A stretch of DNA of 64,000 bases from Escherichia phage vB-Eco-KMB23 (OR525702.1); one strand, 5' to 3'; positions 3,719 through 8,430 are shown, numbered from the stretch's first letter. Notes: generated from the sequence alone by a model not told the origin. Made by a program: numbers and translations.

Positions 3719-3748
3719 ATAGTACCATAGAAGAACAGGGATGTAAAC
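3719..3748 (-). promoter_or_regulatory. T4 early-type promoter-like element (GTTTAC -35, 18-nt spacer, TACTAT -10) on minus strand
   Basis: Plus-strand gtaaac at 3743..3748 and atagta at 3719..3724; same architecture repeated at 7749..7778, 8047..8076, 8378..8407. Confidence 0.5.
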
Positions 3749-3881
3749 AGTTTTGTGAAAAATTTTTTAAAAAGTTTTGGGGAATTCTAGGGCAAGGAGG
3801 GGAAATTAAAGGATAGGATAATATATTATAAAGGGTAGAAACTAAATGATGCCTAGAGAGGCCTGGAAAGGCCTAGATACC

Positions 3882-3910
3882 AAAAAGCCCCAACCTTTTG
3901 GTCGGGACTA
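3882..3910 (-). terminator. intrinsic terminator (10-bp stem with G-U pairs, AAAA loop, T-run) downstream of IP-like gene
   Basis: Minus strand reads AGTCCCGACC-aaaa-GGTTGGGGCT-TTTTT. Confidence 0.6.
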
Positions 3911-3916
3911 AGAATG

Positions 3917-4390
3917 TTATTTGATTTGTTTAGCAGACCAAATGCGGTCTTTAATAATTTTTTGGATGTCTTCAACATACTCGAGAGAATGAGCATGTGG
4001 GTTATCTTTAAAGCTATGAGCACGAGCTAGCTTTTGGCCTTCAGTTTTGATTACTAAAAGCTCTTTAAGGATAGCTTCATATTTGGAGATAATTCCTTTA
4101 ACGATATTTTTTTCTTGTGCGACTTTAGGATCTGCTTTAGGAGCAGGTTTACCCGAAGCCTTTGCAAAAGCAGCGCCAGTAGCAACTAAACTTTTCCAGG
4201 CCATACTAACTGCATTTCCCGTAAATCCTTCCGCTTTCATGTCGCGTGCGAACTGGAATCGTGATTCATCAGAAGCATCTTTGTAAGAATATTTACCCGC
4301 TGCAATGGCTGCTTTTGCGACAGCTTGAATTTCGGTGCTAGATGCTTCATTTAACACCGCTTCATTTAAAAATTGAGTATATGATTTCAT
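3917..4390 (-). CDS. internal-protein-like gene with N-terminal capsid-targeting sequence
   Basis: 157 aa; N-terminus MKSYTQFLNEA resembles the T-even IP leader (MKTYQEFIAE-type), which is cleaved by the gp21 prohead protease; late promoter TATAAATA directly upstream. Confidence 0.7.
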   Translation of the reverse strand: MKSYTQFLNEAVLNEASSTEIQAVAKAAIAAGKYSYKDASDESRFQFARDMKAEGFTGNAVSMAWKSLVATGAAFAKASGKPAPKADPKVAQEKNIVKGIISKYEAILKELLVIKTEGQKLARAHSFKDNPHAHSLEYVEDIQKIIKDRIWSAKQIK

Positions 4391-4430
4391 CTTATTTCCT
4401 GTTTTAATTCGTGGTTTTAATATACTACTA

Positions 4431-4438
4431 TATTTATA
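4431..4438 (-). promoter_or_regulatory. late promoter TATAAATA for IP-like gene
   Basis: Plus tatttata = minus TATAAATA, about 40 nt upstream of ATG at 4390. Confidence 0.6.
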
Positions 4439-4440
4439 CC

Positions 4441-4471
4441 AAAAAGCCCCAACCTTTCAGTCGGGGCTAAG
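4441..4471 (-). terminator. intrinsic terminator (AGCCCCGACT-gaaa-GGTTGGGGCT + TTTTT)
   Basis: 10-bp stem incl. G-U pairs, GAAA tetraloop, followed by T5 on minus strand. Confidence 0.6.
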
Positions 4472-4479
4472 CCTTGCGG

Positions 4480-4770
4480 CAACCTTGTCGGGGTTCCACC
4501 TGCTAAGGCAAGTGTTTGTACGAAACGCCGGGATTCGAACCCGGTTATTAAGTAGTTGACGCTACTCAATATTTTAAAAGGCCATATCTCGACCATATCC
4601 GAACGTTCCGTCAAAAACGCTACTCGGTTTACGGCAAACATATTTCCTCGAATCGATAATTCGGTGCGCCGTTTCTGCTGTGATAGTAAAGAGCCAGAAC
4701 ACAGTAAAACTGTGGGAGGAAACTATACTCCAGGGAACATCAGTCCGACGACTTACCGGTAGCGACCCGG
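4480..4770 (-). ncRNA. candidate structured small RNA region with tRNA-like T-arm
   Basis: No credible ORF; T-arm-like CCGGG-TTCGAAT-CCCGG at 4528..4544 (minus); small hairpins; sits between tRNA-Arg-proximal gene and terminator. May correspond to a T4 small stable RNA locus, not verified. Confidence 0.35.
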
Positions 4771-4774
4771 TTTC

Positions 4775-5125
4775 TTAGTATTCTTTTAAAGCATCAACCT
4801 GTTCACGACGTTTACGCCATAAATCAATTACTTCATACGCAGATTCAGCATTTCGAATTGGACGGCATTTATATAAAGACTTGTGATTTTGATATTGTGT
4901 AGATAACGGAATTTTATCTAAAAGGTCTTTACGTTCAAAATATTCGTAACCATCTAAACCAAATGAACGATTTTTGAGAAATTGCCAATGACCAAATTCG
5001 TTTTCGACATAAACATAATCTGCATGCTGATAAAGCAAATTAATTACACGTTCAGAAATAACAGTATCATTATGATTAAAATAGAATGTTAAATCATGAA
5101 CTACTAAATAAACATTACCTTTCAT
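4775..5125 (-). CDS. hypothetical protein
   Basis: 116 aa ORF immediately downstream (minus) of tRNA-Arg. Confidence 0.6.
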   Translation of the reverse strand: MKGNVYLVVHDLTFYFNHNDTVISERVINLLYQHADYVYVENEFGHWQFLKNRSFGLDGYEYFERKDLLDKIPLSTQYQNHKSLYKCRPIRNAESAYEVIDLWRKRREQVDALKEY

Positions 5126-5143
5126 ATTTTCCTCACTTATAAT

Positions 5144-5219
5144 TGGTCGAGGCAGTAGGGATCGAACCTACGACCCAGGACTTAGAAGGTCCTTGCTCTT
5201 CCTTCTGAGCTATGCCCCG
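5144..5219 (-). tRNA. tRNA-Arg (anticodon UCU)
   Basis: Hand-folded cloverleaf: acceptor CGGGGCA/TGCCTCG, T-arm GTAGG-TTCGATC-CCTAC, anticodon loop CT-TCT-AA, encoded CCA. Confidence 0.8.
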
Positions 5220-5223
5220 TAAT

Positions 5224-6665: not shown

Positions 6666-6666
6666 G

Positions 6667-6739
6667 CTGGGAATAAAGGACTCGAACCTTTGCATCCTGG
6701 AATCAAAATCCAGTGCCTTACCAACTTGGCTAATTCCCA
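6667..6739 (-). tRNA. tRNA-Gln (anticodon UUG), CCA not encoded
   Basis: Acceptor TGGGAAT/ATTCCCA, anticodon loop TT-TTG-AT, T-arm AAAGG-TTCGAGT-CCTTT. Confidence 0.8.
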
Positions 6740-6836
6740 ATTATTAACAAAGGCTCTTAAGCAAGAACCCTTGATGATAGAGGGTATTAATCAGTGCGGT
6801 ATGAGTTAATAATAACAAATAATTCTTAAAGCATAT

Positions 6837-7121
6837 TTACCATTTATGATACGTATTTACGATGCATTCAAGACTTAAAGGATTCTTGAAAATATCATAT
6901 TCAAGAGGACCTTTTTCTGTTTCAATAAAGAAATCAAAATTTACTGTATTAAATTTACGGTCTTCCTTCACTAATTTAACCTGAGAAGATGAACGGTCAA
7001 TGTAAACCTTTTCAACTTCAAAACATGTTAAAATGCCATAATCATCAATCAAGGCTTTAGCTGCTTCTTGATCATATTTATATCCATTTTCAATGGACGA
7101 TACTTTAGCATAAAGAATCAT
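6837..7121 (-). CDS. hypothetical protein
   Basis: 94 aa ORF upstream (minus) of tRNA array. Confidence 0.55.
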   Translation of the reverse strand: MILYAKVSSIENGYKYDQEAAKALIDDYGILTCFEVEKVYIDRSSSQVKLVKEDRKFNTVNFDFFIETEKGPLEYDIFKNPLSLECIVNTYHKW

Positions 7122-7123
7122 TG

Positions 7124-7534
7124 TCAGCCTCTATCAACGATAGCATGAGTATGGGCATTTACGATTTGCCACCAGTCGAAACGATTGAAACCATAATCTG
7201 GTTTATTTTCATTTTCTTTAATGATATCACGCAGCTTATCTTCTGTTTCAGCATACGCAATTAAATCATCATATCCACCACAAGGGTAATAATTATCACC
7301 TGCGAATAAAAGAAAATTTACCTTAGATGGATTTACATAATAATGGTCTTTAGGATATTTAGTTCCTCTCCAATCAGTTACTTCAACATAACGGTAAGAA
7401 AATCCATTTTTACTTTCAATCCAACTCCACGCTTCAAAAGGAGTATTAAAAACTTTATCAGGTATTAAATTACCTTCAAAATGAGAAGGATTTGCATAAT
7501 CCCCAGCATAAACATAATATTCGTTAATACTCAT
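7124..7534 (-). CDS. hypothetical protein
   Basis: 136 aa ORF, adjacent to next gene by 1 nt. Confidence 0.6.
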   Translation of the reverse strand: MSINEYYVYAGDYANPSHFEGNLIPDKVFNTPFEAWSWIESKNGFSYRYVEVTDWRGTKYPKDHYYVNPSKVNFLLFAGDNYYPCGGYDDLIAYAETEDKLRDIIKENENKPDYGFNRFDWWQIVNAHTHAIVDRG

Positions 7535-7720
7535 TTATTCACCTTTAGAAATTTTATCCATAACGATAGCAATTAAACCAATTAAAAATGCTACTACAAG
7601 TGAAAACGCATTTTCTGCTGTAGTTAATAATCCGCATATAAATCCAACAAACATTGAAAAACTAAAAGCAGAAGCAGAAATTGCAATAGCAACATTTCGA
7701 ATTAATTCACAACGTTTCAT
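7535..7720 (-). CDS. hypothetical small membrane protein
   Basis: 61 aa, single hydrophobic helix; preceded by promoter cassette. Confidence 0.5.
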   Translation of the reverse strand: MKRCELIRNVAIAISASAFSFSMFVGFICGLLTTAENAFSLVVAFLIGLIAIVMDKISKGE

Positions 7721-7740
7721 TTTATTCTCCTCGGTAGTTG

Positions 7741-7778
7741 ATAGGGTAATAGTATCACTACCCTATCTAAAAGTAAAC
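7741..7778 (-). promoter_or_regulatory. early-type promoter cassette (GTTTAC-N18-TACTAT) with hairpin gatagggta/taccctatc
   Basis: Plus gtaaac 7773..7778, atagta 7749..7754; conserved core gtaatagtatcactac shared with copies at 8041.. and 8371... Confidence 0.5.
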
Positions 7779-8012
7779 TTATTTTTTACGAAAAATTGAT
7801 TTATTTTCTGCTGCCCATTTTTCAATAACTGCAGCAGGACCAGTAACAACAATTTTATCACCGTAATCTTCTGCGGCGAGTTGACCGAAATTATCTAATG
7901 CATCACGAAGAACTCCATGAGGCATTTCACCCATTTTATCTTTCTTGCCGGTGTAAATAAACTCAACTTTTACATCAGAAGATTCAGCGATAAACTCTTT
8001 GAAAGTTTTCAT
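7779..8012 (-). CDS. internal protein (IP) with capsid-targeting leader MKTFKEFIAE
   Basis: ORF track gives 99 aa from 8078; the conserved IP leader starts at internal Met (8012); alternative start at 8024 (MEIKMKTF...). Confidence 0.7.
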   Translation of the reverse strand: MKTFKEFIAESSDVKVEFIYTGKKDKMGEMPHGVLRDALDNFGQLAAEDYGDKIVVTGPAAVIEKWAAENKSIFRKK

Positions 8013-8040
8013 TTTGATTTCCATTTGGTTTTGTTTTGAT

Positions 8041-8098
8041 AGAGTAATAGTATCACTACTAAAACCCTGTGTAAACAACTTTGTGAAATTATTTTAAA
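8041..8098 (-). promoter_or_regulatory. early-type promoter cassette (second copy)
   Basis: Plus gtaaac 8071..8076, atagta 8047..8052; shares ...gtaaacaactttgtgaaattattttaaat with copy at 8401... Confidence 0.5.
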
Positions 8099-8346
8099 TC
8101 TTCTAATCGTTTCTTCATCTTAGAACCATTTTTAGCAATTTCTCCTGCATCTGAGCATAATGCTAAAAGTGCTTTAACTTTAGTTTGGTCTCCTTTAAAA
8201 GATGAAGGATCGACTGCAGCAGCAAGTTCTTTAATACGAGAGAAAAGACGCTCAGCTTCAGCTAAAGCCATTCCAAGCTTTACTTCCATACCGTGGGAAG
8301 ATTCGGTGATAGTAGTTTTTGTAGCAAACTCTTTGAAAGTTTTCAT
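8089..8346 (-). CDS. internal protein (IP) with capsid-targeting leader MKTFKEF
   Basis: 85 aa; N-terminus MKTFKEFATKT matches IP leader; SD AGGAAA upstream. Confidence 0.75.
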   Translation of the reverse strand: MKTFKEFATKTTITESSHGMEVKLGMALAEAERLFSRIKELAAAVDPSSFKGDQTKVKALLALCSDAGEIAKNGSKMKKRLEDLK

Positions 8347-8370
8347 TTTTATTTTCCTAATTAATTTTGA

Positions 8371-8430
8371 TGAGGTAATAGTATCACTACCTCATCAGTA
8401 TGTAAACAACTTTGTGAAATTATTTTAAAT
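8371..8430 (-). promoter_or_regulatory. early-type promoter cassette (third copy) with hairpin tgatgaggta/tacctcatca
   Basis: Plus gtaaac 8402..8407, atagta 8378..8383, 18-nt spacer. Confidence 0.5.

Follow-up and report, generated by a model that had tools for sequence, protein, structure and literature searches.

Early-promoter cassettes with overlapping stem-loops at the internal-protein locus of a T4-like phage, and their likely part in module exchange

Results

Genes and cassettes of the internal-protein locus

The window analysed here, i.e., the whole 64-kb stretch of DNA, is from a T4-like (Tequatrovirus) genome, and the region studied corresponds to the 57B–ipI–tRNA–e.8 segment, whose genes lie on the minus strand. 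The internal-protein (IP) locus has conserved borders: on the left the 57B homologue (8420..8875), and on the right the trna.4 homologue (7535..7720), a 61-aa predicted membrane protein with 98% identity to T4 Trna.4. The annotations of relatives name the 57B homologue an RNA ligase or the anti-CBASS protein Acb1. Where T4 has ipI, KMB23 has two other IP genes: an 85-aa internal head protein gene (8089..8346; phrog_3499, E 1e-49; leader MKTFKEFATKTTITE) and a 77-aa internal virion protein gene (7779..8012; phrog_8111, E 3e-51; leader MKTFKEFIAE), the latter encoding 81 aa if the ATG at 8024 is taken as the start. Their leaders align with those of T4 IPI-III (MKT[YF].EF..E, capsid-targeting) and their bodies are unrelated; by N-terminal leader and match to an IP protein family, both are T-even IP genes. 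The e.8 homologue, also on the minus strand, occupies 3412..3675 (87 aa from the ATG at 3675).

An earlier note on this DNA had proposed that four copies of a promoter-plus-hairpin cassette punctuate the IP genes. The pattern GTTTAC-N{15,20}-TACTAT has exactly four matches in the 64 kb, all on the minus strand and all where that note had placed them: 8378-8407 (copy A), 8047-8076 (B), 7749-7778 (C), and 3719-3748 (D). Four occurrences of GTTTAC-N18-TACTAT compare with 0.04 expected by chance, and none of 100 shuffles reached this count. The association with IP genes is narrower than proposed, since copies A and B precede IP genes (starts at 8346 and 8012/8024), whereas C and D precede the trna.4 homologue (7720) and the e.8 homologue (3675/3687).

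Cassette A and its flanks (8326..8435) form a repeat unit of ~110 nt. Within it, the end of 57B (..DLK*) is followed by A/T-rich sequence containing TTTCACAAAGTT, by the -35 element GTTTAC (8402-8407), and by TGn and the -10 element TACTAT (8378-8383); a hairpin (8368-8397), a Shine-Dalgarno sequence (SD), and the leader MKTFKEF, which belongs to the 85-aa IP gene, complete the unit. Cassette B and its flanks (7992..8104; -35 at 8071-8076, -10 at 8047-8052) are a second copy of this unit with ~80% identity to the first. Here, the end of the 85-aa IP ORF (..DLK*) comes first, the SD and leader of the 77/81-aa IP gene follow 3' of the promoter, and the hairpin is degraded or chimeric (ttttagta / tactctatc). 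Cassette C (7740..7778; -35 at 7773-7778, -10 at 7749-7754, hairpin GATAGGGTA/TACCCTATC at 7740-7767) precedes the trna.4-like membrane ORF and is without the TTTCACAAAGTT element. Cassette D (3719..3770; -35 at 3743-3748, -10 at 3719-3724), the predicted promoter of the e.8 homologue, has an upstream TTTCACAAAACT element and no hairpin. All four are on the minus strand, as are two sites that the earlier note had overlooked. One is a fifth cassette (3374..3411; GTTTAC at 3406-3411, -10 TATTAT at 3382-3387), which sits where T4 has the e.7 promoter and carries over its -10 a 13-bp hairpin, ATAGGCTCATGAT/ATTATGAGCCTAT, whose stem is unrelated to the other copies. The other is a hairpin-less early-promoter motif (2836..2865; GTTTAC-N18-TATAAT) upstream of the e.6 homologue.

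The shared core described in the earlier note, the 16-nt GTAGTGATACTATTAC, is exact at 7746, 8044, and 8375 and absent from the 3719 copy. The upstream sequence TTTCACAAAGTTGTTTAC is exact at 8402 and 8071, has two mismatches at 3743, and is absent from the 7749 copy.

The motif is that of T4 early promoters

The consensus of T4 early promoters consists of UP, -35, TGn, and -10 elements (PMC2988021). The motif has every element of this class: A/T-rich upstream sequence, GTTTAC, 17/18-nt spacing, and TGn-TAYTAT. Counted from TTTACA, the -10 hexamer lies 17 nt away, which fits all four copies and also the sites at 3382-3411 and 2836-2865. A promoter scan lists TTTACA-17-TACTAT for A, B, and D, whereas copy C reads TTTACT and is unlisted. 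The extended -10 is gTGaTACTAT in copies A-C and aTGgTACTAT in D; the scan marks the TG before the -10 in A, B, and D, and T22 and G23 do not vary among 37 cassettes. A and B are preceded by the A/T-rich UP-like region (-40 to -60) GATTTAAAATAATTTCACAAAGTT, and D by TTTTAAAAAATTTTTCACAAAACT. A role of cassettes A-D as late promoters was considered and rejected, since TATAAATA is absent from them.

Copy A is, base for base, the 57B/ipI intergenic sequence of T4. RNA-seq of T4 assigns 57B and 57A to the middle class, and ipI, trna.4, e.8, and e.7 to the early class (PMC9697503, supplement), and the switch from middle (57B) to early (ipI) falls at the sequence identical to copy A. The record of a relative annotates the same two sites as T4 early promoter, GTTTAC(N14)gtggTAttaT. 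Early transcription, as the earlier note had anticipated, agrees with all of this. The consensus and the T4 data thus support promoter activity of the cassettes in KMB23, and the early-class RNA at an identical sequence in T4 suggests that the sigma-70 holoenzyme would initiate at them right after infection.

Hairpins span the -10 element in about half of T4 early promoters

The inverted repeats quoted in the earlier note are real: RNA folding gives a 13-bp stem in copy A (dG -20.5, z -4.1) and a 12-bp stem in copy C (z -2.85), with stem stabilities of about -17 to -20 kcal/mol. The fold of copy B is weak (z -2.1), copy D gives no hairpin (z +0.5), and 3374-3411 gives the value of z -5.5. A stable stem-loop in or overlapping the promoter is therefore present in A, C, and 3374-3411, marginal in B, and absent from D, so that the pairing of promoter with hairpin does not extend to all four copies. 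Because copy D and the promoter at 2836 do without one, the hairpin is dispensable for promoter identity.

Hairpins over the -10 are not specific to IP genes; about half of the T4 early-promoter motifs have one. In a test based on minimum free energy (MFE), a -10-spanning helix was found in 21 of 41 T4 early-promoter motifs, against 4.5±1.8 in 3'-flank-swapped controls, and in 35 of 45 IP-locus cassettes, against 11.6±2.6. None of 300 flank-swap permutations reached the observed count in either set. This test took the place of a fixed-register score (i+j=1 around the first -10 base), which for the 41 T4 promoters was weakly above the controls (4.59 vs 4.06 of 10 paired, with a run of at least 6 in six promoters); many hairpins use other registers. 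When 37 unselected cassettes were compared in a fixed register, double changes occurred at 10 of 13 pairs, and 65.7% of cells were paired, against 30-54% with the partner slid. These comparisons indicate that the hairpin is under selection. Among internal non-Watson-Crick positions, G·T exceeds A·C by 29 to 8, an excess that indicates the sense RNA, although the counts draw in part on related sequences and do not represent independent events. The hairpins fall into two length classes: those of the long class have their 3' end 20-24 nt past the -10 and pair with the GGAG SD, and the hairpins of copies A and C are compact and end before the SD.

Breakpoints between related phages fall inside the cassettes

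We compared the locus with 36 related loci and T4. IP modules have been exchanged for others or lost, and the breakpoints of these changes lie within the cassettes. In the comparison with one relative (L088), homology ends ~20 nt into the IP ORF (8326) and resumes exactly at the -35 of cassette C (7778); in another (L089), one module is missing and the ends of the indel lie within the 110-nt repeat. On either side of the invariant core, the left and right halves of the cassettes occur in different combinations: the T4 trna.4 cassette consists of the left half of copy B and the right half of copy C, and in two other relatives (L081 and L074) a left half of type C is followed by a right half of type A. 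A 19-nt slippage duplication is also present in L074. Identity goes well beyond the consensus and spans ~110 nt, from the end of the upstream ORF through the spacer and SD into the leader. A 96-nt unit occurs in 664 phage records, most often as two copies in a genome. When IMG/VR was scanned for exact matches to the 16-nt core, 57 loci were returned, ~50 of them chance or coding matches (GSDTIT peptide in unrelated phages); the only T4-like ones (L004, L012, L015, L018, and L031) gave chimeric and duplicated examples only.

The cassettes lie among small non-essential ORFs of a hyperplastic region, at the boundaries of indels and replacements between close relatives. The breakpoints against L088, L089, and T4, together with the differing combinations of halves, support the proposal of the earlier note that the cassettes are probable recombination substrates for the swapping of IP modules. 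Crossovers at these places could reflect the sole homology between otherwise unrelated genes rather than a specialised role. Two other kinds of element were considered and rejected: a transposon end, given that no terminal inverted repeats surround the modules, and a homing-endonuclease target, given that the sole nearby endonuclease gene, segB (5845-6495), is not adjacent to the cassettes.

Comparison with known systems

The intergenic elements of the T-even IP locus (Repoila et al. 1994, EMBO J 13:4181), as they are portrayed in PMC2839356 and PMC4122927, share with the cassettes the locus (downstream of 57B), the phage group, and the combination of a T4 early promoter with an AT-rich stem-loop. 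Both flank IP genes with a common leader, and the proposed role, IP-gene shuffling, is the same. On that portrayal there is no essential difference between the two.

Promoter-early stem-loop (PeSL) cassettes have been described in RB49/phi1, PST/T4, and nt-1/KVP40 (Arbiol 2010, PMC2839356; Comeau 2014, PMC4122927). Like them, the cassettes of KMB23 are composites of promoter and stem-loop in intergenic spaces of hyperplastic regions, beside indels or replacements between close relatives, with a stem-loop that commonly sits in the spacer between -35 and -10 or extends over the -10; a PeSL crossover was mapped within the loop (PMC2839356). However, the RB49 PeSLs have near-perfect sigma-70 hexamers (TTGACA/TATAAT) and polyG/polyC stems, one of them proven to terminate, whereas the KMB23 cassettes have GTTTAC..TGnTAYTAT, AT-richer variable stems (e.g., GATAGGGTA and TGATGAGGTA), and no U-tracts. 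Their AT-rich stems and GTTTAC/TACTAT hexamers therefore make them a T-even analogue and not members of the RB49 family. For Arbiol et al., the T-even IP elements are analogues, not homologues (PMC2839356).

In T4 e, I-TevI, soc, and 49, promoter-embedded RNA hairpins mask the ribosome-binding site (RBS) only in read-through transcripts (PMC3014915). There, as in the cassettes, the 5' arm lies upstream of the internal promoter, so that only RNA from upstream promoters folds. The long-class hairpins described above pair with the SD likewise, unlike the compact ones of A and C. The T4 hairpins embed late promoters (TATAAATA), whereas those of the cassettes embed an early promoter.

Discussion

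We think it very probable that these are T4-type early-promoter cassettes with an overlapping stem-loop, which recombine within shared sequence and so exchange IP modules. The motif is read directly from the present data: in each cassette, UP-like sequence rich in A/T precedes the -35 GTTTAC and an extended -10 (TGnTAYTAT), and a conserved start region (..CTATCAA..) and an SD follow. The host sigma-70 RNA polymerase would use the cassettes immediately after infection, as the early RNA class established by others in T4 suggests, and each small gene behind one would thus be its own transcription unit. In about half of the promoters, the spacer and the 10-15 nt past the -10 form an inverted repeat, the pairing of which is seen here in covariation, with the -10 in or beside the loop. 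The transcript from the cassette itself would start ~7 nt past the -10, inside the 3' arm, so that the stem-loop would form only in read-through RNA from upstream, or in DNA. On read-through RNA, we infer, the hairpin would act as an attenuator or 3'-end barrier rather than as a classical terminator, and longer variants would mask the downstream RBS. Between neighbouring genes and between phages, the sequence is nearly the same in three places: the cassette, the final codons of the ORF before it, and the capsid-targeting leader of 7-10 codons. The efficient homologous recombination of T4 would therefore cross over there, as the breakpoints and chimeric cassettes observed here indicate. Such crossovers would delete, insert, or replace whole IP modules while every gene keeps its promoter.

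The earlier note had also suggested that the hairpins couple the termination of one gene to the initiation of the next. We consider it unlikely that they are intrinsic terminators, each stopping the upstream transcript before transcription restarts for the next gene. The stems of A and C are stable, one GC-rich RB49 PeSL stem-loop cut lacZ expression as strongly as rrnB T1 (PMC2839356), and prediction programs flagged the same hairpins in OL960581. Yet none of the 23 promoter-spanning hairpins of T4 and the window has at least five T in the next 8 nt, their tails are 53% A, and the terminator scan of the region did not report the cassette hairpins although it found two classical terminators with GC stem and T-run elsewhere (4445-4468 and 3886-3909). 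With no U-tract after any hairpin, a canonical terminator is unsupported, and the cassette hairpins lack the GC-rich stem and U-tract of Rho-independent termination; Arbiol et al., too, regard the stem-loops at T-even IP genes as weaker and rich in AT (PMC2839356). By analogy with the strong RB49 terminator, these AT-richer stems may still attenuate transcription.

The resemblance between cassettes might instead result from convergent selection for a strong promoter consensus, with no role in shuffling and with hairpins as by-products of partly self-complementary sequence (aTGnTAnnaT). Indeed, the inner two to three stem pairs are conserved promoter positions (columns 21-23 can always pair with 28-30), and many T4 early promoters share GTTTAC and TGnTAYTAT though they are not neighbours. 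This seems quite improbable to us, since identity over ~110 nt far exceeds the consensus positions, outer stem positions outside the consensus covary, the arms pair better than flank-swapped controls, and breakpoints and chimeric halves are seen directly. We give even less credence to an inverted repeat that works in DNA, as a cruciform or protein-binding palindrome targeting site- or structure-specific recombination (e.g., by endonuclease VII). It would fit the observation that some of the cassettes have their dyad axis at a fixed position, on the upstream border of the -10, and Arbiol et al., with one crossover mapped to the loop, speculated on a stem-loop-binding recombination protein (PMC2839356). 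But the far greater tolerance of G·T than of A·C fits RNA better than duplex or cruciform DNA, the highly variable stems leave no conserved recognition sequence outside the promoter core, and T4 general recombination needs short homology only (PMC2839356, PMC9391042).

Beyond the exchange of IP modules by recombination within early-promoter cassettes, the stem-loop might be a general RNA element, selected for its structure and present in about half of all T4 early promoters, acting in read-through RNA only and as an insulator (a 3'-end/RNase barrier or, in the longer form, an RBS mask) rather than a terminator. We advance this tentatively and incline somewhat against it. In the literature examined, we did not find it stated in that form how often the hairpins occur across the genome, that they come in two length classes, that they lack U-tracts, or that they are biased towards G·U. 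If the insulator reading is true, each mobile module would carry a start signal together with a device telling 'own' from 'foreign' transcripts.

Promoters with stem-loops flanking the swappable IP genes of T-even phages are already described (Repoila 1994, as relayed by Arbiol 2010 and Comeau 2014). The idea dates back ~30 years, and the PeSL model has since widened it to T4-like phages in general, so that the KMB23 window adds only another example. The modest point of interest that remains is that the hairpins over promoters look more like elements acting at the RNA level in read-through transcripts than like terminators. IPs enter the host by injection and counter its defences: GmrSD is blocked by IPI, and on E. 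coli strain ECOR17 the phage requires IPIII (PMC9391042). The swapping of IP genes through such cassettes would thus be one way in which T-even phages alter their host range.

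Early-promoter cassettes in the internal-protein locus

The window comes from a T4-like phage: over 1,100 phage records, for the most part coliphages of the Tequatrovirus type, match its segment 3300-8900 (identity up to 96.6%), and the minus-strand gene order is that of T4 (57A, 57B, the internal-protein or IP gene(s), trna.4, trna.3, trna.2, tRNAs with segB, stable RNAs, e.8, e.7 and e.6). Two IP ORFs, both on the minus strand, lie between 57B and the trna.4 homologue (7535-7720, minus strand, 98% identity to T4 Trna.4). The 85-aa product (8089-8346) falls in phrog_3499 and the 77-aa product (7779-8012) in phrog_8111, both of them families of internal head/virion proteins (E about 1e-50), and the capsid-targeting leader is the only part that the two products have in common with T4 IPI-III. 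The start that yields the canonical MKTF leader of the 77-aa gene is at 8012; an upstream in-frame ATG at 8024, also present in related loci L058, L089 and L071, would give 81 aa (MEIKMKTF...). The 57B homologue (8420-8875) is called an RNA ligase in RefSeq and PHROGs and the anti-CBASS protein Acb1 in the annotation of some relatives; under the latter annotation, the variable IP locus directly adjoins another anti-defence gene.

The pattern GTTTAC-N15-20-TACTAT has exactly four matches in the 64 kb, all on the minus strand, where 0.04 are expected, and they are the four copies that the earlier note had placed in this region: A (hairpin at 8368-8397), B (-35 at 8071-8076), C (hairpin at 7740-7767) and D (3719-3770, upstream of the e.8 homologue at 3412-3675, minus strand). 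The 16-nt core GTGATACTATTAC is matched exactly in three copies, and an upstream TTTCACAAAGTTGTTTAC box is found in a different three. A looser early-promoter pattern recovers two further sites just downstream, at 3374-3411 and 2836-2865. The description of these elements as promoter-plus-hairpin cassettes punctuating the IP genes thus rests on a real observation, but the full combination of promoter and hairpin is present in just two copies out of four, one more cassette, the fifth (3374-3411), had been missed, and IP genes make up two of the four genes downstream.

Their reading as early promoters is supported. Every element of the T4 early promoter class, i.e., UP/-35/TGn/-10 promoters (PMC2988021), is present in the cassettes. 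Across 37 unique cassettes of related loci, no variation occurs in GTTTAC, in the extended -10's TG, or in the T, A and last T of the hexamer at -10. Copy A matches the intergenic region between T4 57B and ipI base for base; the T4 counterparts of copy D and the fifth cassette are the e.8 and e.7 promoters. In the T4 time course, the 57A and 57B RNAs are classed as 'middle' and those of ipI, trna.4, e.8 and e.7 as 'early' (PMC9697503 supplement), a pattern expected if copy A holds an early promoter. In the record of a relative, OL960581, each of the two IP-locus cassettes is annotated as a T4 early promoter, overlapped by a predicted terminator.

A hairpin over the -10 element

On RNA folding, copy A formed a stem of 13 bp (dG -20.5, z -4.1) and copy C one of 12 bp (z -2.85); the structure in copy B was weak (z -2.1), and copy D had no hairpin (z +0.5). 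The fifth cassette has the architecture of the promoter-plus-hairpin copies with an unrelated 13-bp stem (z -5.5); no stem was found at 2836-2865, upstream of the e.6 homologue. We searched the T4 GTTTAC-N17/18-TAnnnT motifs on the early strand for a helix of at least 6 bp spanning the -10 (dG <= -10), using as controls promoters whose 3' flanks had been swapped. Such a helix occurs in 21 of the 41 motifs vs 4.5±1.8 in controls (0/300 reached the observed value), and in 35 of the 45 unique cassettes of IP loci vs 11.6±2.6. Hairpins over the -10 are no peculiarity of IP genes.

When the 37 cassettes were aligned without selection and without gaps, a fixed-register stem was 65.7% paired vs 30-54% with the partner slid, and two-sided changes affect 10 of its 13 pairs. 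Internal non-Watson-Crick positions are G·T in 29 cases and A·C in 8 (counts that are not independent events), a bias that points to the sense RNA.

It had been proposed that these hairpins couple termination of one gene to initiation of the next. In the classical sense this is unsupported, because no T-run follows any of the 23 -10-spanning hairpins (0/23), their tails are A-rich (53% A), and a terminator scan that found two canonical terminators elsewhere in the region passed the cassette hairpins over. A transcript initiated at the cassette would have its 5' end within the 3' arm, so the stem can form only in read-through RNA, where it may act as an attenuator, a barrier or a masking element. 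Two length classes can be told apart: compact hairpins, which end 6-16 nt beyond the -10, and long ones, which end 20-24 nt beyond it and pair with the GGAG ribosome-binding site. In T4 (e.g., at 62796, 53942, 8217 and 65412), the long-class 3' arm takes in the downstream GGAG Shine-Dalgarno. The long class would thereby mask the ribosome-binding site in read-through RNA and leave it free in promoter-proximal RNA. The role inferred for the hairpins on read-through RNA has a documented analogue in the late promoters of genes e and I-TevI, which also contain hairpins (PMC3014915); the long-class T4 hairpins are the early-promoter counterpart of that arrangement.

Probable exchange of IP modules at the cassettes

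We compared 36 loci encoding 57B relatives, together with the T4 genome. Homology between the window and related locus L088 covers 57B and cassette A, continues for some 20 nt of the IP ORF (to 8326), is then lost, and restarts at 7778, precisely where the -35 of cassette C lies; the stretch between the cassettes is a replaced IP module. Locus L089 lacks the 85-aa module, and the indel ends within a direct repeat of about 110 nt (8435-8326 and 8104-7992, about 80% identity) that consists of the upstream ORF's last codons, followed by the cassette and the leader. Because the repeat takes in those codons, extending 12-16 nt into the upstream ORF, DLK-stop closes the 85-aa IP (8089-8104) as well as 57B (8420-8435). 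The C-terminus of the 85-aa IP appears to have come from the 57B end, which is what single-crossover integration within the repeat would produce.

Among nine aligned cassettes, three left-half and three right-half types, joined at an invariant GATACTATTA, occur in five combinations. In T4, the cassette of trna.4 combines B-left with C-right; those of related loci L081 and L074 combine C-left with A-right and have a broken stem. The L074 cassette (about 7173-7250, on the same contig as L031) also contains a 19-nt tandem duplication (GATACTATTACCTCATCAA, twice) in which both the -10 and the 3' arm are doubled; it has the look of a scar left by slippage or unequal exchange at the recombination core. 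A 96-nt unit is present in 664 phage records, as a rule in two copies per genome. The breakpoints in L088 and L089 and the reassorted halves match what is predicted if, as had been suggested, cassettes serve as recombination substrates linking IP modules.

A possible IP-like module and the tRNA cluster

A 157-aa ORF (3917-4390, minus strand; phrog_2280, unknown function), absent from T4, has a capsid-targeting-like leader (MKSYTQFLNE|A) and, upstream, a T4 late-promoter box, TATAAATA (4431-4438). Two canonical intrinsic terminators (4445-4468 and 3886-3909), 92% identical to each other, flank it, and region 3877-4471 looks like an IP-like module inserted via a duplicated terminator rather than an early-promoter cassette. 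The tRNA cluster (4400-6900: Arg, His, Asn, Tyr, Met, Thr, Ser, segB, Gly, Leu, Gln) is unlike that of T4, whose eight tRNAs include Ile and Pro. The 94-nt 'tRNA-Lys' called by ARAGORN at 4518-4611 is probably a tRNA-like stable RNA, since it lies where T4 carries rnaC and rnaD; a 116-aa ORF (4775-5125) separates it from tRNA-Arg.

Relation to published cassettes

Promoter-early stem-loop (PeSL) cassettes were defined in RB49/phi1 as an early promoter plus a stem-loop, mostly in the spacer that separates -35 and -10 or over the -10; reporters showed promoter and terminator activity, and one crossover was mapped to the loop (Arbiol et al. 2010, PMC2839356). According to that paper, elements of this kind at both T-even IP loci, and a proposal of IP shuffling, go back to Repoila et al. 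1994. PeSLs were then extended to PST/T4, with the consensus TTTACW-N17-TAYWAT (Comeau et al. 2014, PMC4122927). Given these accounts, the observation and two of its three interpretations had appeared in print before for the same locus. The feature is real and its interpretation largely correct, but both are known. Only quantitative points are mildly new, i.e., the covarying -10 hairpin in about half of T4 early promoters, the absence of U-tracts and the G·U bias, the last of which is consistent with an RNA-level role of the hairpin in read-through transcripts.
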